Shown in pieces: positions 18,201 to 64,000 of a stretch of 64,000 bases of DNA. This DNA comes from Nitrososphaerota archaeon. Its GTDB lineage: Archaea > Thermoproteota > Nitrososphaeria > Nitrososphaerales > Nitrosopumilaceae. Position 1 is the stretch's first letter. Every line of letters starts with the position of its first letter. The position numbers and the translations under genes were made by a program. The DNA lies in assembly GCA_028867755.1 (NCBI GenBank), contig JAGWFT010000001.1, positions 548,727 to 612,726 on the forward strand. Reading direction: 5' to 3'. Under the pieces are notes generated by a model, which worked only from the letters and a program-made list of their open reading frames with translations, had not been told where the DNA came from and made no database searches.

Positions 18201-18602
18201 GTTGTGTATTATCAAAAACTCCACCACATGGTTGCAGATAAGATTCATGCAAGAGCAAGAGGTCAAGTACAGATGTTAACAAAACAACCAACAGAAGGTC
18301 GTGCAAGAGGTGGAGGGCTTAGATTTGGTGAAATGGAAAGAGACTGTCTTATTGCATATGGTGCATCTATGATGTTAAAGGATAGACTTCTTGAAGAATC
18401 TGACAAGGCTGAAATCTATGTTTGCGAAAGATGTGGATTAGTCTCATATTATGATATTAAACAAAGAAGATTTGTCTGTAGAGTATGTGGAGACAAGGCA
18501 AAGGTTACATCAATATCTGTCGCATATGCCTTTAAACTTCTATTACAAGAAATGATGAGTCTTGATGTTGCACCAAGACTTTTGATAAAGGAGAGGGTCT
18601 AA
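15255..18602 (+). CDS. rpoB: RNA polymerase subunit Rpo2 (B, unsplit)
   Basis: GDKFASRHGQKG, RFGEMERDC, C-terminal zinc motif. Confidence 0.98.
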   Translation: MTHISHKRWPIVQDILKREGIARQHLNSYDEFLERGLQSIIDEVGQIEIESAEYPYKIQLGKVKLQQPRMMELDGSITHIAPMEARLRNVTYASPIMLEASVVEDGKILESRYVHIGDMPVMVRSNACILHNLSEQKLVEYGEDPNDPGGYFIINGSERVIVGLEDLSYNKIIVDKETVGGNTVFKAKVYSSIVGYRAKLELVMKNDGLIVAKIPGSPVDIPVVTLMRALGLESDREIAAAVSLVDEIQDELEASFEKSGDVPTAKDAIVYISKRIAPGMLEEFQIKRAETLLDWGLLPHLGKHPDNRKEKSLFLGEATCKLIELKLGWITPDDKDHYGNKVIKFAGQMLADLFRTAFRNLVRDMKYQLERSGQKRGINAVAAAVRPGIVTDKLNNAIATGNWGRGRVGVTQLLDRTNYLSTISHLRRIQSPLSRSQPNFEARDLHATHFGRICPSETPEGSNCGLVKNLALSAIISVNVASEDIVEKLYDLGATYVSDAKDDLKKEGTRVFVDGRLIGYYKDGQKLVDSLRELRRNYKIHSHVGIFLYQSSVEGSTKRLYVNCNAGRVLRPLIVIKDSKLLLTQELIDKVSKKFLSWTDLLHMGVIELVDANEEENCYIAIDETDMKKHTHMEIFPSAILGAGASIIPYPEHNQSPRNTYESAMAKQSLGFSTPLMNASTYVRQHLMLYPQTPIVTTKAMGLLGLEDRPAGQNCVVAVLPFDGYNIEDAIVISKSSVDRGLGRTFFYRIYEAEAKQYPGGMRDNFEIPTADGNIRGFRGDKAYRLLEEDGVIATESTVQGGDILIGKTSPPRFMEEYREFEVKGPYRRDTSIGVRPSENGVVDTVVMTQSHDGGRMYKIRVRDLRIPEIGDKFASRHGQKGVVGLLVNHEDLPYTADGVVPDVMINPHAFPSRMTVGMFLESVTGKAAALRGSKMDGSAFVGEKLEDVKGVLEAAGFKYSGKETMYDGRTGKSFPVDVFVGVVYYQKLHHMVADKIHARARGQVQMLTKQPTEGRARGGGLRFGEMERDCLIAYGASMMLKDRLLEESDKAEIYVCERCGLVSYYDIKQRRFVCRVCGDKAKVTSISVAYAFKLLLQEMMSLDVAPRLLIKERV

Positions 18603-53927: not shown

Positions 53928-54377
53928 TTGATTCCAAAAGGAGCTACGATTTGTTTTGTTGTAGGAGTAATAGGAGCAGGAATAATTGGGGCATTTTTGT
54001 TTCAAATTTCAAGCCAGGCACCAACTCTAGTCTACCAAAGTGGACCATCTCTTTCAGTAATACCAGATAAAATAAACTATCGACTAGGTGAACCAGTACA
54101 AATAAGGATAATTAATTCAGGAACTGCTCCTCTGACATTTTCTGACTCTTCGTTTGGATTGAAGATTAGAGGTCTTGATGGTACCATAATTTACTTGCCT
54201 ATATCTGCACAAATGGTCTCAACATTAAATTCTCATGAAGAGAAAATGTTTGTCTGGAATCAAACAAAGACAGATGGGAGCAAAGTTATTGAGGGTAGAT
54301 ATAAGATCGAGTCTAACACATCGCCAGACGCAGGCAATGTATTGAAAAAATCAGTTACAATAAACATCTTTCAGTGA
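53928..54377 (+). CDS. Membrane-anchored Ig-like hypothetical protein
   Basis: N-terminal TM helix, then 'YRLGEPVQIRIIN.G' and 'FVWNQ...GRY' beta-sandwich pattern. Its TGA stop is the first 3 nt of the candidate attL. Confidence 0.75.
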   Translation: MIPKGATICFVVGVIGAGIIGAFLFQISSQAPTLVYQSGPSLSVIPDKINYRLGEPVQIRIINSGTAPLTFSDSSFGLKIRGLDGTIIYLPISAQMVSTLNSHEEKMFVWNQTKTDGSKVIEGRYKIESNTSPDAGNVLKKSVTINIFQ

Positions 54378-54408
54378 AATCATTGAAATCATGTGATGTA
54401 TCAATTAA
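54375..54408 (+). repeat. Candidate attL
   Basis: TGAAATCATTGAAATCATGTGATGTATCAATTAA: contains the exact 12-mer and ATTGAAATCAT-N5-GTATCAA, both shared with 57645-57672. Confidence 0.5.
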
Positions 54409-54468
54409 CGTAATAACTAATCTAGCAATAACCTATATTATATAATTCCAAGGCTATATGATGGTGTA

Positions 54469-55578
54469 ATGCAGAGAAGCACCCTACGCTTTGAGAATGC
54501 GATCAAATCAGAGCATACCAGAAAGATGTACAGGTACTACCTTGAAAACTTCAAGAAATTTGTAAAGATAAGAGAGGATGATGGACTGTTACAGCTCAAA
54601 GAATCATTCTTGCAGGAAGCTGTGGAAGATTTTCTGTTTGACCTGAAAAAGAAGATTTCTCCCAATTCTATTCCACAAAGATTCTCAGCCTTACAGCTTT
54701 TCTTTTCAATGAATGACAAAGTGCTGAACTGGGAAAAAATCAAAAAGATGTTTCCTGCTACAGTCAAAAGAACGGGCGGGGATGCATGGTCTACACAAGA
54801 CATAAAGAAAATGCTTGAGAGTACTAAAAGCAAACGAGAGAAGGCACTAATTCACTTTCTTGCATCTACAGGTTGCAGAATAGGAGCCATACCTGACATT
54901 AAATTAAAACACGTTTCAGATATTGAAAATTGTAAGACTGTCAAGATCTATGAGGGGACAACCGAGGAATACCATGTGTTTCTGACACCCGAGGCAAACG
55001 TAGCCTTGGATGAATATTTAAACAAACGAAAATCTGATGGCGAAATCTTGAGTTCTGATTCACCGCTCTTTAGACAAAGGTACAGACTTGGAGGGGCTAA
55101 AGTCAAGCCAGTCAACACGGTTTTGTTAAAGGCTAAGATGACTGATGTAATACATGCAGCCAATATTGAGAGGCTCAAACAAGGAAGGAGATACAGCATA
55201 CAATTGGACCATGGATTCAGAAAGAGATTCAACACCTTACTTAAGAATAATTCTATAGGCAATATTGCGTTAAAAGAAAAGCTGATGGGTCACAAAGGAG
55301 TTTTTGATCTGGATGGTAGATACCACAAACCAGACGTCAAGACTTTATTTGAAGAATTTAAGCTTCACATTACAAATTTGGTCATTAGTGACTCAGAAAG
55401 AGATAAACTAACTATTGCTAAATTATCAGCCGAAAAATCAGAATCCGATAAAAAAGCTATGAGAATTGCAGAACTAGAAGAACAGGTGGCTGCCGTGATT
55501 CATAAACTGGATTTAATCTCGGGAACAAAGAGTGAAGAGAGAAAACCGCCCTTCACAAATGAAAGCCAGCTAGATTAG
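54469..55578 (+). CDS. Tyrosine recombinase/integrase
   Basis: Catalytic set R137 (STGCRIG), H248-x-x-R251 (HGFR), H275 (LMGH), Y285; SAM-like N-terminus; coiled-coil C-tail. Confidence 0.93.
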   Translation: MQRSTLRFENAIKSEHTRKMYRYYLENFKKFVKIREDDGLLQLKESFLQEAVEDFLFDLKKKISPNSIPQRFSALQLFFSMNDKVLNWEKIKKMFPATVKRTGGDAWSTQDIKKMLESTKSKREKALIHFLASTGCRIGAIPDIKLKHVSDIENCKTVKIYEGTTEEYHVFLTPEANVALDEYLNKRKSDGEILSSDSPLFRQRYRLGGAKVKPVNTVLLKAKMTDVIHAANIERLKQGRRYSIQLDHGFRKRFNTLLKNNSIGNIALKEKLMGHKGVFDLDGRYHKPDVKTLFEEFKLHITNLVISDSERDKLTIAKLSAEKSESDKKAMRIAELEEQVAAVIHKLDLISGTKSEERKPPFTNESQLD

Positions 55579-56266
55579 CTTTATTCGAATGCCATATAGG
55601 TTCGAATCCAATCTGTCGGTCGTATTCTTTTGGTTGCTCCTCAGTTAAACCTGCTAAAAGAGATAGCCATCCCATCAATCTAGAATAATCTTCGTATGCA
55701 GACTTCCAGATTTGATTTCCAAATGAATACTGGCTAGATATTAAATGGTCCATCATGTCACCAACCACATTTAACATTTGATACATTATCCCAACCCTGA
55801 AATCTGTTGTTGGCTTTCCACCTCGTATTTTTCCATTAGGAATACTAACCATTGACATGACCAGCCTTGCAAGATTATTTTTTCTGAACTGGGTACTGTT
55901 AAATCGCATATTATTCCCGCTAAATTTGGCAGCTTCTGCAGCCTTTCGAGGATCTAGTAATTCAGCTACTTCATCCTCAAATGTTTCAGCTAATTTTTCA
56001 CTAACCGCTATTGATTCAAAAAAATATGTTAGATCAGCCATTGCAGGAAAAATAACAGTATCGAGAACGTATACTTTCATCCTGTCTAATTCCCGAATTT
56101 TCTTCTTTTCATCTGTTGAAAGTTCCTTGCCCGCCTTGGTCAGATTTTCCTTCTCTCGGTGTAATTGTAACCATTCTTGGACAAAGTTAACTAGCGTATC
56201 GTTAGGAATGTAACTTTTCATTTCACCAATCTTATGAACCTGCTTATTCATGTAACAGTAATTCAT
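55553..56266 (-). CDS. Hypothetical protein (predicted mostly helical)
   Basis: 237 aa ORF convergent with and overlapping the integrase by 26 nt. Start uncertain; ATG 56221 (MKSYIP) is plausible. Confidence 0.7.
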   Translation of the reverse strand: MNYCYMNKQVHKIGEMKSYIPNDTLVNFVQEWLQLHREKENLTKAGKELSTDEKKKIRELDRMKVYVLDTVIFPAMADLTYFFESIAVSEKLAETFEDEVAELLDPRKAAEAAKFSGNNMRFNSTQFRKNNLARLVMSMVSIPNGKIRGGKPTTDFRVGIMYQMLNVVGDMMDHLISSQYSFGNQIWKSAYEDYSRLMGWLSLLAGLTEEQPKEYDRQIGFEPIWHSNKANLAGFHL

Positions 56267-56276
56267 TATGTTACAT
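56250..56276. promoter_or_regulatory. Inverted repeat / candidate operator in divergent promoter
   Basis: ATGTAACA-N11-TGTTACAT, between the divergent ORF237 and the AbrB operon. Confidence 0.55.
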
Positions 56277-56295
56277 ATATCTATTATTATATTGA

Positions 56296-56472
56296 ATGCA
56301 AGAAAATGCTGACAATAAAGAGATCGTAAAGACCTGGCTCACTGGCAACAGTTCCTGTACGCTTGTAATCCCAAAAAGGTTTGCGATAGAATACGGTCTT
56401 GACAAGCCAGCCCATGTAATTATAGAGAAAAGATCTGACGGTTTGCTGGTCCGAAAGCTGGATGTGATCTAA
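56296..56472 (+). CDS. AbrB/MazE/SpoVT-like DNA-binding protein (not in ORF track)
   Basis: Translated by hand: MQENADNKEIVKTWLTGNSSCTLVIPKRFAIEYGLDKPAHVIIEKRSDGLLVRKLDVI* (58 aa). Swapped-hairpin pattern G-S-x-x-(L/V)xIP...GL...(V/I)...xGLL(V/I)RK; stop abuts the next ATG. Confidence 0.82.
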   Translation: MQENADNKEIVKTWLTGNSSCTLVIPKRFAIEYGLDKPAHVIIEKRSDGLLVRKLDVI

Positions 56473-56685
56473 ATGCAGCCATCGAATCTTGACAAGCTTA
56501 GAAAATGCTGTGAAAACCAGAAAACCTATCTTATCGTATATGATGGCGGACCCACTCCAGATCTTCCAGTATTAGTTTGTCAGTCGTGTTATGACAGTTT
56601 TCCAGTATTTCAGAAATTCATAAAATCAAAACAATTCGTTGAAGATTCTTCGAATCAAAAAATGCCAACCCATTCTGTAAAGTGA
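56473..56685 (+). CDS. Small Cys-rich (putative Zn-binding) protein
   Basis: KCCEN...VCQSCY; translationally coupled between the AbrB-like gene and rep. Confidence 0.7.
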   Translation: MQPSNLDKLRKCCENQKTYLIVYDGGPTPDLPVLVCQSCYDSFPVFQKFIKSKQFVEDSSNQKMPTHSVK

Positions 56686-56691
56686 CAAAAA

Positions 56692-57672
56692 ATGAAATCA
56701 GAAAATGAAACTTTGATAAAATATTTCCGTCCTGCCTCTAAGCAAAGTACTCAGATTCTAGCAGCAGTAGCAGCATTTGTTGCAGACCACAAGTTTATGA
56801 CAAATTGGATGACAATAGAACGTGACGGATGGAATCTTCCATGCACTCTTGATAAATATGACTGGTGTGGTCTATGGGTAACTTTTGGTTGTCTGAAAGA
56901 TAGACTACATGAAATGTTAGGAAAGGGAAGACGGGTTTACATAAAGCAATACCAACGATCATGTTATAGATCATCTTGCATGGAATGTTATCTTAAATGG
57001 ATAGCAAGACAGGCAAATAGGGCAACTAGAAGAATTGAAGAATATGCCAAGCTAACAGGTCAAAAACCAGTTCATCTAATGCTCATGGTCAATCCTTCAC
57101 AATATGATCTTCCCTATGACTTGCTAAGAAAACGTATGATGGAGATACTCAAGATAGCTCAATGGGAAGGCGGGGCAGTTATCTTTCATCCCTTCAAATT
57201 CAATGAATCTTCCAGGGATTGGTATTATGCACCTCACTTTCATCTAGTAGGGTTTGGAGAAAAGGATAGAATTGCAAGAGCCTTTGGAAGGTACAAATGG
57301 TATGTGAAAATAGCAGAGGAAAGAAAATCAGTCTTTCAGACGTTCTGTTACCTTCTCTCACATTGCGGCATAAGAAAGAAACACCATACGGTAACTTGGA
57401 TAATGGGTTTATCATATAGCAAAGTACCTTCTGAAAAAGAGCCAAAAAACACGTGTTGCCCTGCCTGCGGAGGCGAATTTGTGCCTGTGTATTACGATGG
57501 AGTACATCCTATTGTGACCTCAGAGCGGCATTTTGAGGGTCTGGTGGACTCAGACGGGCATTGGAAGACAGTGGAAACTGGAAAATGGATTGGGAATGAA
57601 GATAATAGATTCGATTATGCCCCATTTAGAGATCTAAATGAAGTATTGAAATCATTGACAGTATCAAATTAA
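56692..57672 (+). CDS. rep: HUH-superfamily rolling-circle replication initiator (Rep)
   Basis: Motif 1-like VHLMLMV, HUH motif PH182FH184LVG, catalytic-Tyr motif Y220LLSH; N-terminal SC91YRSSC96MEC99YLKW and C-terminal CPACGG zinc motifs. Resembles archaeal (pleolipovirus/plasmid-type) RCR Reps as I recall them. Confidence 0.82.
   Translation: MKSENETLIKYFRPASKQSTQILAAVAAFVADHKFMTNWMTIERDGWNLPCTLDKYDWCGLWVTFGCLKDRLHEMLGKGRRVYIKQYQRSCYRSSCMECYLKWIARQANRATRRIEEYAKLTGQKPVHLMLMVNPSQYDLPYDLLRKRMMEILKIAQWEGGAVIFHPFKFNESSRDWYYAPHFHLVGFGEKDRIARAFGRYKWYVKIAEERKSVFQTFCYLLSHCGIRKKHHTVTWIMGLSYSKVPSEKEPKNTCCPACGGEFVPVYYDGVHPIVTSERHFEGLVDSDGHWKTVETGKWIGNEDNRFDYAPFRDLNEVLKSLTVSN
57645..57672 (+). repeat. 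Candidate attR (inside rep 3' end)
   Basis: ATTGAAATCATTGACAGTATCAAATTAA; ends at the rep stop codon. Confidence 0.5.
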
Positions 57673-57755
57673 TTGTTCTAGAAATCTTTTTCATATAATG
57701 AGAAAACCGCAATAGACTGTGACATTAGCCAAATAATTTTAACCAAGGTTTGTCT

Positions 57756-58256
57756 TTATTGCAGTCGAATTGTTGAGTATATCCATTTGTTTCTTGTAAT
57801 CCAATATATTCTCAATACAAACACAAATGCAATTGCTTCTGCCAAGACAATCCCAGTAGGTAAAAATAATGTTGATAGTTGTATTATTGAACCAACTATG
57901 AGTAATGTAAGTGCTGATGATTCAAGTGAGGCACTATGAATTGCCTTTAACCATCTATTTGTATTCGATGTGTATGTCACAACATATTTTTTATGCTTTA
58001 GAATTAATTGGAATACACCTATAGCCAATAATATCCAAATCAGATGGTAAGTATTGACATTACCTAATACTGTATTCAATAGAATTATGCTTTGATTTGG
58101 AAATACAAAATGACCTGCAGTTAAACCGCTTATTACAGCTACGTATATTGTTACTATGTTCGAAAAAGTGTCTTTTATGAGTGGAATTGCCTTTGTAGTA
58201 ATCAAATATTTGATAATTGTATAGATGACGTATATGGCATATCTGAATTTTCCCAT
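57756..58256 (-). CDS. Hypothetical multi-pass membrane protein
   Basis: 166 aa, about 4 hydrophobic segments, AT-rich. Confidence 0.7.
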   Translation of the reverse strand: MGKFRYAIYVIYTIIKYLITTKAIPLIKDTFSNIVTIYVAVISGLTAGHFVFPNQSIILLNTVLGNVNTYHLIWILLAIGVFQLILKHKKYVVTYTSNTNRWLKAIHSASLESSALTLLIVGSIIQLSTLFLPTGIVLAEAIAFVFVLRIYWITRNKWIYSTIRLQ

Positions 58257-58411
58257 ACTTATTGAATGTGGTACAACCTAAAAAAATCTTCTATCATACA
58301 ATATTGTAACTTCTTCGAAAATATCAAAGGCATAATCTAATACCTATTCAGCAGCAGTAAAATAGAGTTGTTTGCTTTTCGGGTTTCATTTCTTTTAGGT
58401 AGATGAATGAA

Positions 58412-58891
58412 TTAACCTGATTTTGGTTTGGATTCTTTCATTAATTTGTACATGTCTGATAGTAAATTTTCAATATTTTCCAGTTTCTGATATATTGGTT
58501 CAGGTTGTGGCATGATGGGATTTTTTCTAGCTTTTCTTGCTAATCTATCCACTGAGAAGAGGCTGAGCAATAGAATGGCTATTGTTATTATGCCACTAAT
58601 AAAATTGAAATCGTAAACAATGAAACCTATGCTAGTTAGCAATAATCCAATTCCTACTATTGTCAAACCTGCAACCGTGTTAGAGTATGTGCTTCCTTTT
58701 GGAATTCTACCTGTTGTTACATTAAGACGAGCTATAGTAGCAACCAAGAACAGTATAGCTGCTATGCCGAGAAATGTAAGCACGGCTACATTTTTTGAAT
58801 CCGCTTGAAGTAAGAAAAATAGTGCGGTTAATGTTGTTCCAGCTAAGAATGCAAATGCCGTAAAATGGGGGTCATGTGTAGAATTTTCCAA
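58412..58891 (-). CDS. Hypothetical 4-TM membrane protein with C-terminal coiled segment
   Basis: 159 aa, TTG start, four hydrophobic helices then PIYQKLENIENLLSDMYKLMKE. Confidence 0.7.
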   Translation of the reverse strand: MENSTHDPHFTAFAFLAGTTLTALFFLLQADSKNVAVLTFLGIAAILFLVATIARLNVTTGRIPKGSTYSNTVAGLTIVGIGLLLTSIGFIVYDFNFISGIITIAILLLSLFSVDRLARKARKNPIMPQPEPIYQKLENIENLLSDMYKLMKESKPKSG

Positions 58892-59035
58892 GTTGTCCTG
58901 TCTGATTTTTACCTGTGTTTTGAATTAAGGTTATCCATCTATTTACGTGGGTCTTGCTGCAAAAGGAGTAAGTATTGAACTAAAGTCACCTATGCACTAG
59001 AAAGTTTATTCGACCAGACACCAAAGAATATTGAA

Positions 59036-59866
59036 TTGAGTAAACTTGGATTTCTATTTTGTCTTGATTACGTTATTGTAAAAAATAGAACAAAAAATGC
59101 AAGAATAGTATCTAGTAAAGTAAAACCAAAAAAAATGAATCCAATGAAGATTTTTGTTATGAAATTTTCTCAGATACCTCTGATTGTTTTCAAAGAAGGT
59201 CACGTTGTAATTGGAACAGATGATGAAGAAAAAGCATATACGATTTCAAATATCATAAAATCTAATCTAGCTAATTTTCAATGCTATCCTTCTGGAATCA
59301 AGGTACGGAAACTTATTGAGGTTTATTATGATTCTAATTTTAATTGCAATTTTTCCAATTTCTCATCGGATCCCTGTGGAGTGGTAAAGGGGGAAATTAC
59401 AGAAAAAGAATTGATGGAAGCTATTATAGAATCAGGCAAAATCTACAAAAATAAAGAATTAATGGAAGAATTATTGCTCTTGACGGATTCTCGTGAGCAT
59501 CTAAACAACAGAGACTATGCCGCTTCTTTCCTATTTTCATGGTTAATTCTAGAGAGAAAAATATTCAGTGATTGGGATTACAAAATTAAAAGTCTCAAAT
59601 TATCTAATGATAGAACCAGTCAATTCCTAAATCATAAGAGAGAGTGGTCACTTGGTCGTGTTCTTGAGATCAGTAATCTTTTAGGCATAATATCGAATGA
59701 AAAGTATCAAACATTAGCAAAATTCAGAGATATTAGAAATAACTTGGCACATGGATTTCTTAAAGTGGAAAGAGACGACGCAAAAAAATGTTTTGCAATG
59801 GCTGATTTTGAATTATCCAACAAGATGTTATTGCTCAAATCACCTAAAGCGGAAAGGACTGTTTGA
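59036..59866 (+). CDS. HEPN-domain protein (ApeA-like putative RNase)
   Basis: R234-N-N-L-A-H239 (Rx4H) preceded by SFLFSWLILE helix. Start uncertain; ATG 59135 is plausible. Confidence 0.7.
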   Translation: MSKLGFLFCLDYVIVKNRTKNARIVSSKVKPKKMNPMKIFVMKFSQIPLIVFKEGHVVIGTDDEEKAYTISNIIKSNLANFQCYPSGIKVRKLIEVYYDSNFNCNFSNFSSDPCGVVKGEITEKELMEAIIESGKIYKNKELMEELLLLTDSREHLNNRDYAASFLFSWLILERKIFSDWDYKIKSLKLSNDRTSQFLNHKREWSLGRVLEISNLLGIISNEKYQTLAKFRDIRNNLAHGFLKVERDDAKKCFAMADFELSNKMLLLKSPKAERTV

Positions 59867-59916
59867 ATTTGGTAAAAATGATCAAGTTAATGAAATGGTA
59901 ACACGATGAATGCCTA

Positions 59917-61470
59917 TTGCAAAAACGGGCTCTAATAACGGTAGTAATTGTAGTCGTAATTATAGTAGTATTAATCCCAGTTGGATATGGATTGGCACAG
60001 CGAGCTACAGTTACAAGCCTGAAATTTCATTTCAACAGGGCAGAACTTGCAAATGTTGATTTCTCCCAGACTCAAACAATCGGCAATTTAGAACAGTTGT
60101 ATAATAATATCCAAAACCCGTCCCTTGGGACCCTATCGGAGGTAGCCTCGATAGAATCTGCCGTTCCTTCTGAATCAACAATAATGTTTGACTTGTTAGC
60201 AAATACGAGATATACTTTCAACGTCTACGTGGATGTATCAAATCCTTCATTCATACCTGTCGTAATTGACAAAGAAGACATCAAGGTATCAATTAGTGGT
60301 CACGAGTTACCAGGGGATGTTACAATACCACAACAGATTACAGTTCCAGCTGGAGGATCGACCACAGTAGAATTGGAAGGAATAACAGCAAGTGGGAGAG
60401 ACATAGCAGATGTTCTTGCTAATTCCATAAGCAATGACTATGTTCTTGATTTCAATTTTGCAATAACTAGTTTTTATCCTACCTTATTTGGAGAGGTCCA
60501 AATTCCTGCTGACATTGATCTGATAACTTATCCGATTCCTCCAAAGCCAACTCTCTCTAACTTTCAACAAGACGGGTACAATGTAAATTCCTACACATTA
60601 TCATTTCAAAATTCAAACAATATTCCTATTGAAGGACAGATGCAAGTTGGGGTAATGAAGGGAAATTCCTATGGGTGTGATCCAGCCTGTATAGTGCCAG
60701 TGGATAGTGGATTGGGCACATTTCTGCGAATAACGGGAAGTGATCTGTTTGGAATTCAAGTCTTTGAAGCAAACTACAATCCATCGCCTGAACAAACGTT
60801 TTCTATGAATATACAAAATCCAACATTGAGAAACAACGCAAATTCTGCATTTATCATGAGATGGGTTCCAACCTTTGATACTATTCCTTATACCGCAACA
60901 ATTACCATTGCTGGAGTGCCAGAAACGTCACAGGGTGAATTTCATTCATCAACATTTAGCACGATTCGAGATGTGGTATACAATTTAGGAAGAGATTTTG
61001 GATATGTTGGGTCTAGAGAATTTGTATCTCCTACCATTGAAACCGCACAAACGCCAAGCTCCGCTTTGTCAAATACCATAAACTCTATTCTGAACGGAGT
61101 CTCATCAGCTCCCCAACTTCCTCCAGTTCAGAGTTCTGGCACACAAATAGTAAACGGAGTATACAACGTTCCTCCTGGAAGATATCAATACTTTACATTT
61201 ACCTCTTCCTGTACTGGCACTCTATCGGGAAGCTTTGCCGCACAAGCTACATTAGGAAATAACATTGTTACATACGTACTCGATCAAGCTGGTTTTAATC
61301 AATTTCAAGCTGGAAATTCTGCCTCAACCTACTATAACAGCGGAAAAATTTCATCGGGAAGTTTTCATGTATCTCTCGGAACTGGTACCTACTACATAAT
61401 ATTATCAAACACATATTCAATAATCTCAACTAAAACCGTCGATGTGCAAGCTTATTACAGTTGTAATTGA
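59917..61470 (+). CDS. Membrane-anchored extracellular beta-rich protein (LEA_2-like N-terminal region)
   Basis: N-terminal TM; 'VDVSNPSFIPVVIDK..I.VSISG' LEA_2-like pattern; C-terminal jelly-roll-like domain (GTYYIILSN). Confidence 0.65.
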   Translation: MQKRALITVVIVVVIIVVLIPVGYGLAQRATVTSLKFHFNRAELANVDFSQTQTIGNLEQLYNNIQNPSLGTLSEVASIESAVPSESTIMFDLLANTRYTFNVYVDVSNPSFIPVVIDKEDIKVSISGHELPGDVTIPQQITVPAGGSTTVELEGITASGRDIADVLANSISNDYVLDFNFAITSFYPTLFGEVQIPADIDLITYPIPPKPTLSNFQQDGYNVNSYTLSFQNSNNIPIEGQMQVGVMKGNSYGCDPACIVPVDSGLGTFLRITGSDLFGIQVFEANYNPSPEQTFSMNIQNPTLRNNANSAFIMRWVPTFDTIPYTATITIAGVPETSQGEFHSSTFSTIRDVVYNLGRDFGYVGSREFVSPTIETAQTPSSALSNTINSILNGVSSAPQLPPVQSSGTQIVNGVYNVPPGRYQYFTFTSSCTGTLSGSFAAQATLGNNIVTYVLDQAGFNQFQAGNSASTYYNSGKISSGSFHVSLGTGTYYIILSNTYSIISTKTVDVQAYYSCN

Positions 61471-61546
61471 TTTATGCTTCCTCATTTCTTGCCAATGTGT
61501 TCTGGAATATTGATGAAGCCATGCAAATTTCCATAAATCTTTTAAA

Positions 61547-63778
61547 TTGCCCAAAGAATGGTTATGTACGAAAATACTAGAAAAATTCTCCATTCAATAT
61601 TCTATACTTGTTGTGTTATCCTTATCTTTGGTAATTCTGGCAACTCCACACGCTTATGCAGCTAATGCCCAAGTAACAATTAGTAGCGGTGCATCTAATA
61701 CAGGAGGAACTTGTTCACCAACAAGCTGTTTCAATCCGCAAACCATGAACATCAATGTGGGGGATACTGTAACTTGGACAAACTATGACACAGTGGGACA
61801 CACTGCAACGAGTGGTAATCCATCCGACAATCAAACAGGTACTGTCTTTGATAGCAGTTTGATTGCAGCTAGTAGGACTTACACAAGCCCCGCTTTCAAT
61901 ATTGCAGGTACATACAATTATTTTTGTGCAGTTCATCCTTGGATGACAGGACAGATCATAGTTGGTAGCGGTGCATCGCAACCAACCCCGCAATACAATC
62001 CACCACCACAATACACGCCTCCGCCTCAGTATACGCCGCCTACTCAAAACCCTAATGCAGACATTACAATTAGTCGAGGAGCAAGTAATACTGGAGGAAG
62101 TTGTTCTGCAACAAGTTGCTTTAACCCAAATGTTTATTCAGCAAATGTAGGTCAGTCTGTTACATGGTATAATGCTGATACTGTGGGACATACCGTAACA
62201 AGTGGAAATCCTTCTGATAATAGAACAGGGACTATTTTTGATAGTAGCTTGATTCGGTCGGGAGGTAGTTATGGACTTGTCTTCAACTATGCAGGAACTT
62301 ACAACTATTTCTGTCAAGTACATCCATGGATGACAGGCGAGATAATTGTTGGTGGGGGGGCATCACAACTTCCGCCTCAACCACAATACACGCCTCCGCC
62401 AAACAACGTGATAATAAGTAGCGGTGCATCTAACACAAAAGGAACTTGCACCGCAACAAGCTGTTTCAATCCACAAGATGTATACATCAATATTGGAAAC
62501 ACTGTAACATGGACAAACTATGACACAGTGGGACATACGGCAACAAGTGGTCGCCCATCTGACCCACAGACGGGAACTATTTTTGACAGTAGCTTGATTT
62601 CAGCTGGCAGGTCTTACACTAGTCCTCCTTTCAACGTACAAGGCACTTACAACTATTTCTGCCAAGTACATCCATGGATGACAGGCGAGATAATTGTTGG
62701 TAATGGCGTGTCACAATCATCGCAATTACCAAGTACAATACCCGTAGATGGTACTAGTTACTCTATCACTTATGCCATTACTAATGGAAATGTCCTTGAT
62801 ATCAAAGCAAATCCTCAATCAAAATCCTTGACTGTATCTATCCAGACAACTGGCGACGGTTTGTTGACAATCACAATGCCAAGAGCATTAATTGACGCAA
62901 AGAAATCTGATGGTACCGATGATCAATTTGTAGTGTTAAATGATGGTCAGCTAAACAGTCAGTCGTATGTAACTTCTACGACAGGGACTGATAGGACATT
63001 GTCAGTTCCATTCAAGGCTGGAACACAACAAATAGAGATAGTCGGAACCTTTGTTGTAGGAGAATTTTCGTCCTCCTCTCAATCCAATCCATCAACGCAA
63101 ACTCCTTATTCTATAAATGTCCAAACAGACAAATCATCTTATAATTCAGGAGACACGGTAACAATCACTGCATATTCTCCTAATGTATCTGCAGGACAAA
63201 ATGTTGCTATACTTGTGACCGATCAGCTGTCTAATGTTGTTGCATCAAGAACAACACAATTTAACGGACAAGGATATGCAACACTTCAGATAGGATTACC
63301 TTCAAATTCGCAAGCTGGTACTTATCAAATAACTGCAAGTGCTTCTTCTAATGGAAATTATCTGACAGGAAGTGCTTCCTTTACTACCACATCTAATATT
63401 TACACGCCATCTACACCATCTATCACATCTGGTGTGTCAATAGTTTCCGTCCAGCCCACAAATCAACTAGGAAATAACGTGGTGACTTCTTATAGTAAGG
63501 GAACAACTGGTTTTGTCAAAGTTGTTGTCTCATCCACATCAAGTCAGTCTGCTCTCATCACTGTTAATCTTGTAGGCTCTGATGGCACAAGTCTAGGCGT
63601 AGGTTCTATCAAGACATCGTTAGGAACAGGCACTAGTGAGATGGTAATTTCATTTTATATCCCAGCAGGTGCAACTGTTGGCACAGCCAATATCTATGCA
63701 GACATGTATTCAGATTGGATCACTAATGGAGGCACTCCTCTTACAACTGAATCTTCATCCACGGTGGGTATACAATGA
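61547..63778 (+). CDS. Secreted protein with three type-1 copper (cupredoxin) domains plus Ig-like domains
   Basis: Three repeats, each with GHT(A/V)TSG and YNYFC-x-VHPWM (His...Cys-x2-His-x2-Met), at about 61661-61969, 62057-62356 and 62404-62704. Confidence 0.92.
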   Translation: MPKEWLCTKILEKFSIQYSILVVLSLSLVILATPHAYAANAQVTISSGASNTGGTCSPTSCFNPQTMNINVGDTVTWTNYDTVGHTATSGNPSDNQTGTVFDSSLIAASRTYTSPAFNIAGTYNYFCAVHPWMTGQIIVGSGASQPTPQYNPPPQYTPPPQYTPPTQNPNADITISRGASNTGGSCSATSCFNPNVYSANVGQSVTWYNADTVGHTVTSGNPSDNRTGTIFDSSLIRSGGSYGLVFNYAGTYNYFCQVHPWMTGEIIVGGGASQLPPQPQYTPPPNNVIISSGASNTKGTCTATSCFNPQDVYINIGNTVTWTNYDTVGHTATSGRPSDPQTGTIFDSSLISAGRSYTSPPFNVQGTYNYFCQVHPWMTGEIIVGNGVSQSSQLPSTIPVDGTSYSITYAITNGNVLDIKANPQSKSLTVSIQTTGDGLLTITMPRALIDAKKSDGTDDQFVVLNDGQLNSQSYVTSTTGTDRTLSVPFKAGTQQIEIVGTFVVGEFSSSSQSNPSTQTPYSINVQTDKSSYNSGDTVTITAYSPNVSAGQNVAILVTDQLSNVVASRTTQFNGQGYATLQIGLPSNSQAGTYQITASASSNGNYLTGSASFTTTSNIYTPSTPSITSGVSIVSVQPTNQLGNNVVTSYSKGTTGFVKVVVSSTSSQSALITVNLVGSDGTSLGVGSIKTSLGTGTSEMVISFYIPAGATVGTANIYADMYSDWITNGGTPLTTESSSTVGIQ
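62297..62353 (+). repeat. Internal near-identical repeat of Cu-ligand loop
   Basis: 62297-62353 vs 62645-62701: 57 nt with one mismatch. Confidence 0.9.
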
Positions 63779-64000
63779 ATTATTTTAGATTATTTTCAAC
63801 TGGTTTTGTTTTAGCGATAATATACCTTGGAATATCAGAGTCATTTGCACAGAATGCAATTATCATAAATACTGACAAGACTTCATACGGTCCAGGTGAT
63901 CTTGTAACTGTTACTGGTACAGTATCAGGTGCACCAAATCAACTTGTGGCTATACAGGTAAAAGATCCTAGTGGAAACCTTATTTCAATACGAACTGTTC
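63775..64000 (+). CDS. Secreted Ig-like protein, PEFG-CTERM-type N-domain (3'-truncated; not in ORF track)
   Basis: MNYFRLFSTGFVLAIIYLGISESFAQNAIIINTDKTSYGPGDLVTVTGTVSG...VKDPSGNL; ATG overlaps the previous stop codon; open to the window edge. Confidence 0.8.
   Translation, partial: MNYFRLFSTGFVLAIIYLGISESFAQNAIIINTDKTSYGPGDLVTVTGTVSGAPNQLVAIQVKDPSGNLISIRTV

Follow-up and report, generated by a model that had tools for sequence, protein, structure and literature searches.

The window analysed here is the whole 64,000-nucleotide stretch of DNA from an ammonia-oxidising archaeon (AOA), the host genome of which (G000) encodes an archaeal AmoA. Directly after its L15-SecY-Adk-Cmk-Cbf5 block lies a compact core of five genes: a tyrosine integrase gene, a reverse open reading frame (ORF), and a tightly coupled set of three ORFs that ends in a predicted HUH replication initiator (Rep). 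Comparison with congeners and more distant relatives indicates that the interval 54375-57672 is probably the conserved core, for integration and replication, of a cryptic integrated element that measures about 14.8 kb, belongs to the family of the published element NitAQ6f-E2 and carries a rolling-circle Rep. The features of the core, with the evidence for each, are as follows.

54469-55578, + strand: tyrosine integrase, 369 amino acids (aa); Pfam, PHROG and NCBIfam matches, catalytic residues kept
55553-56266, - strand: helical protein without a named family, 237 aa; convergent to the integrase gene and divergent from the Rep operon
56252-56274, no strand: palindrome GTAACA-N11-TGTTAC in the divergent promoter region; candidate operator
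56296-56472, + strand: AbrB/MazE-like small protein, 58 aa; sub-threshold Pfam MazE_antitoxin match, kept in L011, L013, L014 and L016
56473-56685, + strand: Cys-rich, Zn-ribbon-like protein, 70 aa; no family match, kept in the same four loci
56692-57672, + strand: putative HUH Rep of the SNJ1-RepA-like type, 326 aa; motifs, structural model and profile comparison

The five ORFs, their motifs and the tight coupling of the last three had first been noticed in a reading of the letters alone, made before any database search (the sequence-only reading), and all were recovered here. The integrase, to which that reading had ascribed a full catalytic set, passed the Pfam threshold for Phage_integrase (PF00589; 37.2 bits against a cut-off of 27.1, E 3.2e-9) and also matched the PHROG integrase (4e-13) and NCBIfam XerA-like (3e-19) models. 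Its R, HxxR, H and Y positions are kept in an alignment with nine relatives, and the sequence contexts of these residues (R in ASTGCRIG, HGFRKR, GHK, and the Y of DGRY) are kept in 9-10 family members. A coiled-coil-like C-terminal extension of about 70 residues follows the catalytic Tyr (window 55320-55578, residues ~285-369), and its motif (SDSER...) is kept across the integrases of the family.

The 3’ end of the reverse ORF overlaps that of the integrase gene. Its 67 homologues are all unnamed; the predicted structure is all-helical (mean model confidence, pLDDT, 76), and VIA-align, an ESM Atlas structure search and an Atlas feature search returned generic helical hairpins only. The AbrB-like label stood only in part: the ORF is present, and its match to MazE_antitoxin (PF04014; E 4.3e-4, 20.6 bits) falls under the Pfam cut-off of 24.7 bits. 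As a putative DNA-binding protein, it is likely a regulator of the Rep operon. The start codon of the Zn ORF abuts the AbrB-like stop codon, an arrangement of translational coupling, and the gaps along the AbrB-like, Zn and Rep series are 0 and 6 nt. For Rep, the reverse ORF and the Zn protein, no match was obtained in Pfam, PHROGs, NCBIfam, a PDB sequence search or tblastn against phages and plasmids. Capsid, ATPase and conjugation families were likewise unmatched in Pfam, PHROGs and NCBIfam, in agreement with the sequence-only reading.

The start of the reverse ORF falls within the palindrome, and the abrB TATA region follows just downstream of it. The whole 64 kb window contains a single copy, where 0.02 would be expected, and its position is conserved in 5 of the 5 loci that carry the AbrB and Zn module (L007, L011, L013, L014 and L016) and in no other locus. 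No other conserved cis element was found. We read it as a candidate operator, which the AbrB-like protein, the Zn protein or both would bind to control rep and the divergent gene. Its hairpin is thermodynamically unremarkable (z = -1.3), so an origin hairpin, which we also considered, is the less likely assignment.

Borders of the integrated element

We extended the window along the host contig, continuing its coordinates past 64000, and compared the site in three congeners (G006, G013 and G012). Empty sites, which the sequence-only reading had proposed to seek in relatives, were present in all three: between the gene that precedes the integrase on the left (window 53928-54377) and a tRNA-Ser(GGA) gene there are just 56-355 bp, and the tRNA gene is then followed by a 2-hydroxyacid dehydrogenase gene whose G000 counterpart is at continued coordinate 69657. 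On the evidence of these empty sites, about 14.8 kb is inserted in G000, from 54400 to about 69171-69186 (G000:C24:603126 to about 617900), and the element thus runs some 5.2 kb past the window end. The tRNA-Ser(GGA) gene occupies continued positions 69224-69322 (L030:5951-6049) and was confirmed by Rfam and by ARAGORN -i; the default mode of ARAGORN missed it because of its 13-nt intron. The border features are listed below.

54378-54399, no strand: host-side arm of the left junction; diverged between G000 and REEA70 (see below), aligned by eye with the empty sites
54400-64000, no strand: integrated element, the part within the window; empty sites in congeners, identity step against REEA70
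54405-54415, no strand: candidate attachment (att) core TTAACGTAATA, with its partner TTACAGTAATA at continued 69172-69182

The host-side arm resembles the sequence found immediately upstream of the tRNA promoter in the empty-site genomes. TTAACGTAATA and TTACAGTAATA are the sole sequence common to both mapped junctions, and TTACAGTAATA overlaps the TATA-box region of tRNA-Ser(GGA), which is conserved in the empty-site genomes. A search for exact direct repeats (k>=9) across the junctions gave nothing convincing. Because published thaumarchaeal att sites can be as short as 8 bp (PMC6563490), this pair is plausible, if tentative, as a short att core. The integrase would then have inserted a circular form of the element into the promoter region of the intron-containing tRNA gene, with a probable crossover within the short core TTA(CA/AC)GTAATA. 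In the otherwise empty spacer of G013, between the 149-aa gene and the tRNA (L034, about 18272-18436), we noted CCTAGTTTGCTGTAAT, which resembles the right end of the element plus the core (CCTAGTTTACAGTAAT) and may be the scar of an earlier occupancy.

The locus was thus found to have an integrase, to be absent from the same site in relatives, and to contain no recognised virus or conjugation hallmark genes. By these comparisons it is a horizontally acquired cryptic integrated element with empty sites in congeners. What the sequence-only reading had named as fatal to its view, a Rep lacking any HUH-fold match or vertical inheritance with no empty site, was not what we observed.

The Rep protein and its relatives

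The motifs of Rep comprise HFH at residues 182-184 and YLLSH at 220-224, together with an N-terminal Zn finger and a C-terminal CxxC. Across 37 aligned Rep sequences, H166, H182, H184 and Y220 are invariant, as is the Cys/His set C59, C67, H73, C91, C96, C99, C256 and C259. In an AlphaFold2 model (pLDDT 84.5), H182-F183-H184 are predicted to lie on a strand formed by residues 176-188, with H166 on the neighbouring strand; Y220 would sit on the helix that follows the HUH strand (residues 214-222), and it aligns with the Tyr of 'YALSH' in SNJ1 RepA.

When the model was compared with 48,161 PDB chains by VIA-align, the Rep of SIRV1, ORF119, topped the matches (Z 6.2, root-mean-square deviation 3.6, 102 residues), and RepB of pMV158 scored Z 5.3. 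The Foldseek comparison called for by the sequence-only reading divided by database: BFVD gave 31 matches at E<=1e-3, the named ones being Microviridae/G2P/gpA-type replication initiators, and the PDB gave nothing at E<=1e-3 (E>0.02). Since the fold-search values are modest, with the best Z at 6.2 and generic ferredoxin-like folds scoring almost equally, the HUH assignment leans on the motifs and on profile links. The latter were obtained with hhalign, which aligned Rep with SNJ1 RepA (probability 88.8%, E 2.5e-6) and with a Halobacterium plasmid ORF (probability 96.4%, E 1.1e-9), both alignments spanning the Zn finger, the HPF motif, the PHFH motif and the Y-LSH motif. Taken together, these data give good, though indirect, support for the last ORF as an HUH rolling-circle Rep, as the sequence-only reading had supposed. 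Rep is 53% identical over its full length to the 'SNJ1-like RC-Rep' of NitAQ6f-E2 (BLASTP E 3e-130), and because of this identity it is, by homology, a member of the family of that published and annotated protein.

This family is large. At 90% clustering there are more than 169 Rep homologues, all 'hypothetical' and all from Nitrosopumilaceae-type metagenome-assembled genomes (MAGs), and none of 1661 representatives at 50% clustering has a Pfam domain. No Pfam, NCBIfam or PHROG model covers the family, and the elements that carry it are therefore systematically annotated as 'hypothetical'. In one 716-aa protein (P0192), an MT-A70 DNA methyltransferase domain stands N-terminal to a family Rep.

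The closest described system is NitAQ6f-E2, a 19.3 kb cryptic element integrated in tRNA-Phe of Ca. Nitrosotenuis sp. AQ6f, whose genes include an integrase (+), a hypothetical (-), a 66-aa hypothetical (+) and the 'SNJ1-like RC-Rep' (+) (Krupovic et al. 2019; PMC6563490). Our order-wide search returned a Rep match at the published NitAQ6f-E2 coordinates in a 1.7 Mb single-contig genome, where the published 16-nt att is present at both published ends, along with tRNA-Phe(GAA). The two elements share the order integrase (+), convergent ORF (-), small ORF or ORFs (+) and a Rep of ~330 aa; both have cupredoxin cargo, and their sizes are comparable (19.3 kb against 14.8 kb here). They differ in that their integrases have no similarity detectable by tblastn, in that NitAQ6f-E2 lacks AbrB-like and Zn-ribbon homologues and has a different reverse ORF, and in their placement: NitAQ6f-E2 lies at the 3’ end of its tRNA gene with a perfect 16-nt att, whereas the element here lies 5’ of tRNA-Ser(GGA), in the promoter, with at best a 9/11 core. 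The locus is thus a new member of a kind of element already described in 2019, and the same study put forward the idea that such small elements could serve as thaumarchaeal vector backbones (PMC6563490); on both points the novelty claimed by the sequence-only reading is reduced.

SNJ1 (Simuloviridae), for which RepA-dependent rolling-circle replication is established (PMC12642351), offers a functional comparison. Its RepA and the haloarchaeal plasmid Reps align with Rep through the Zn finger, the HUH motif and Y-LSH (the hhalign probabilities of 88.8-96.4% above), and SNJ1 likewise encodes regulators of the MazE/AbrB superfamily upstream of repA. SNJ1 RepA is longer (481 aa), has insertions and, in 144-153 aligned columns, is about 25-28% identical to Rep; no significant pairwise similarity links SNJ1 gp5 to the AbrB-like protein. 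SNJ1 itself, unlike the element here, is an episomal virus that encodes a capsid and has no integrase. The Reps of Microviridae (VP4/gpA-like), SIRV1 ORF119 and pMV158 RepB appear from the model to share the central HUH alpha/beta fold (Rep residues ~106-246), but they have no detectable sequence similarity to Rep and lack both its N-terminal Zn finger and its C-terminal CxxC module.

In the scheme favoured here, Rep would nick an origin with Tyr220 after excision of the element, attach covalently, and drive rolling-circle replication with host enzymes. The remaining ~11 kb would be exchangeable cargo, made up of copper proteins, surface proteins and defence-type genes. Excision, the circular form, the nicking site, the pairing of regulator and operator, and the route of transfer are the parts of this scheme that we infer.

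Transfer between species and competing explanations

The distribution of Rep is patchy: it was found in 2 of 24 close relatives, and among the genomes sampled more widely, 25 of 401 from the order and 23 of 112 from the host’s family have it. Nearly all complete loci link it to a tyrosine integrase, and many adjoin tRNAs; related elements occupy other sites, some with direct repeats of 15-47 nt. Subfamilies differ in their type of integrase and in their reverse ORF, and the five genes occur together in L011, L013, L014 and L016. Elsewhere the integrase-Rep core is followed by different cargo: HEPN_AbiV, TIR, AIPR, Usp, a Na/H exchanger or cupredoxins.

Several of these relatives merit individual description. 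An imperfect direct repeat of ~47 nt (L024, 1582-1628 and 14174-14220) brackets a 12.6 kb element with an integrase and a family Rep. A decayed relative of 5.9 kb (L017:9380-15300) is flanked by a perfect 15-nt repeat of the 3’ end of tRNA-Thr; a single 519-aa ORF fuses an integrase fragment to Rep, and its cargo consists of Usp, a Na/H exchanger and a CBS protein. A related Rep with 81% nucleotide identity lies at another site (G254:C8:251070-252050, L042), as does a congener Rep with an in-frame TGA (G007:C59:2576-3448).

The island is also present, at the corresponding site, in REEA70, a MAG of a different species. Compared in 300-nt bins, G000 and REEA70 have an identity of 0.65-0.80 through nearly all the host flank; it rises abruptly at 54400 (75-80% before, 94-100% after) and remains at 0.94-1.00 as far as the tRNA, except for three short dips inside the island (56400-56700, 59700-60000 and 66600-66900). 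Synonymous divergence (dS) between the two genomes is saturated in the flanking secY, adk, cmk and cbf5 genes and in the 149-aa ORF (53928-54377), and is 0.015-0.25 in island genes, with the Zn ORF as an exception at 0.76. Because of the identity step and this contrast in dS, we regard the whole 14.8 kb as the mobile unit; on the same comparison, at least one of the lineages acquired the island long after the two had split. The ratio of nonsynonymous to synonymous divergence (dN/dS) is 0.08 for the integrase, 0.15 for the reverse ORF, 0.03 for abrB, 0.12 for zn and 0.09 for rep, values by which the core genes are under purifying selection.

Several observations, besides the modest fold scores noted above, weigh against a working integrative replicon. 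No origin or nick site was identified in the element. It is single-copy in the assembly, where no circular or extrachromosomal copy was seen, and terminal overlap was found in 0 of the 42 fetched loci. The candidate att core matches at 9 of 11 nt only and could be due to chance. Finally, integrases usually target the 3’ end of tRNA genes, and the insertion here, 5’ of tRNA-Ser(GGA) and with the integrase at the end of the element far from the tRNA, departs from that.

One explanation that draws on these observations is that the region is a fixed, immobile genomic island whose integrase and Rep are relics and which now persists only as host cargo, with copper proteins and defence genes. The imperfect att core and the single copy with no circular form would fit this, as would the decayed relatives, which include the L017 fusion and the Rep genes of G007 and G216, both of which contain stops. 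In the element itself, however, all catalytic residues are intact, the integrase and rep have evolved at dN/dS 0.08-0.09 since the two copies split, and dS in the island is far under that of the host flank, which indicates a recent arrival in at least one of the two species. We consider a fixed island unlikely.

The cryptic integrated element favoured here might alternatively be a provirus of unrecognised type, for example pleolipovirus-like or vesicle-like, with the membrane and surface proteins of the cargo as virion components. SNJ1-type Reps do occur in viruses, two small membrane proteins and a number of secreted or surface proteins are among the island’s products, and the route of transfer between species is unexplained. 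Against this, no capsid, packaging ATPase or PHROG structural family was recognised among the element genes, and the genes after Rep differ completely between family members, as expected of cargo and not of a virion module. This makes a provirus very unlikely.

We judge less probable still the proposal of the sequence-only reading that the five genes alone are a self-contained, excisable rolling-circle plasmid of ~3.27 kb, bounded by a ATTGAAATCAT-containing repeat at 54382 and 57645. A 23-nt repeat of 78% identity does exist (54382-54404 against 57645-57667), the five genes co-occur in the four loci listed above, and several module-bearing metagenomic contigs are 3.2-3.3 kb long. The repeat cannot be the att site, because its left copy is mostly host-side (54382-54399, where REEA70 has unrelated sequence), its right copy is the end of the Rep coding sequence, and the same 10 kb contains 17 further repeats of comparable quality. 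The contigs, which we considered as free plasmids, are fragments; the 3290-nt L001 begins within the integrase gene and lacks terminal overlap, so it is a piece of an assembly. Moreover, insertion and transfer involved the full 14.8 kb, over which identity is uniformly 94-100%; there is an identity step at 54400 and none at 57672, so that the supposed minimal replicon is only the first 3.3 kb of it.

Least probable is an IS91-like HUH transposase gene in place of a plasmid-type Rep: a homology of SNJ1 RepA to IS91 transposases is reported in the title of Wang et al. 2018 (cited in PMC6563490), and the IS91-family Y2 transposases likewise have an N-terminal Zn-binding domain followed by the HUH domain, but Rep is single-copy in the genome, is linked to a tyrosine integrase as described, has one invariant Tyr only on its catalytic helix, and, although this is weak evidence alone, leaves the Pfam Y2_Tnp and Zn_Tnp_IS91 models unmatched in 37 members.

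The integrated element of the NitAQ6f-E2 family is, within that published class, an unusually well-delimited addition, and the comparisons give strong evidence of its recent mobility: congeners have the site unoccupied, another species has a nearly identical copy there, and integrase and Rep are under purifying selection. In addition, its target in the tRNA-Ser(GGA) promoter has been mapped, and it has a candidate operator that is conserved. That the 3.3 kb core suffices for autonomous rolling-circle replication and for site-specific integration in the tRNA-Ser(GGA) promoter, and that the element is still moving between species of Nitrosopumilaceae, is a possibility we hold only tentatively and think doubtful as a whole. 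Genetic tools are still lacking for AOA (PMC11897584). If the core were self-sufficient, it would be a ready replicon-plus-integration cassette for a first AOA genetic system.

Cargo and neighbouring insertions

The genes that follow Rep in this element, within the window and past its end, are listed below.

57756-58256, - strand: membrane protein, 166 aa, in a low-GC stretch; 100% identical in REEA70
58412-58891, - strand: membrane protein, 159 aa; ORF and REEA70 comparison
59036-59866, + strand: HEPN-like protein with an Rx4H motif, RNNLAH; weak Pfam DUF4145/HepT-like match, PADLOC Csx1/Csm6 HEPN 3.4e-4
59917-61470, + strand: secreted or membrane-anchored protein, 517 aa, with an LEA_2-like domain; Pfam LEA_2 7.8e-6, 96% identical in REEA70
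61547-63778, + strand: surface protein with triple cupredoxin (plastocyanin-like) and MG2 domains, 743 aa; Pfam Copper-bind 1.7e-24 (3 stretches), MG2 1.3e-8
63775-64000, + strand: MG2-domain protein, 150 aa, crossing the window edge; Pfam
Past the window: zf-AN1 protein, CAP-domain protein, 2H-phosphoesterase/metallophosphatase fusion, and DUF3800 with DUF3800-X RNA

The HEPN-like protein is a candidate defence RNase, judged from its motif and matches, and related elements have HEPN_AbiV, TIR or AIPR genes at the same place. Cupredoxin cargo recurs in L005, L012, L014, L022 and L025 and in NitAQ6f-E2, and plastocyanin-like cupredoxin genes are found downstream of family Reps in otherwise different elements, L041 included. 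This recurrence of cupredoxin and defence cargo suggests that such elements shape the copper-dependent physiology and the virus resistance of AOA. About 4.3 kb past the edge of the window, at the island’s right end, a DUF3800-X RNA (L030:5008-5100, +; Rfam, 41.9 bits, above gathering) adjoins a DUF3800 gene (L030:5095-5787, -), a protein-RNA pair that is archaeal mobile-element cargo.

The tRNA-Ser(GGA) gene is a hotspot on both sides. In addition to the 14.8 kb island that G000 and REEA70 carry 5’ of it, REEA70 has another ~16 kb between the 3’ end of the tRNA and the next host gene; synteny in G012 is lost after the tRNA, and 1.4-2.6 kb of additional sequence lies there in G006, G008 and G011. 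The G011 genome, used in one supporting comparison, is unpublished, and no conclusion depends on it. A stretch of ~4 kb at the G000 element site in G008 and G011 was considered as a related element and rejected, the G008 stretch having no integrase. This G008 insert (L032:14483-18250) encodes an SbtA bicarbonate transporter, a PII-like SbtB, HxlR, a methyltransferase, an LMW phosphatase and an aquaporin, a gene set of the arsenic type.

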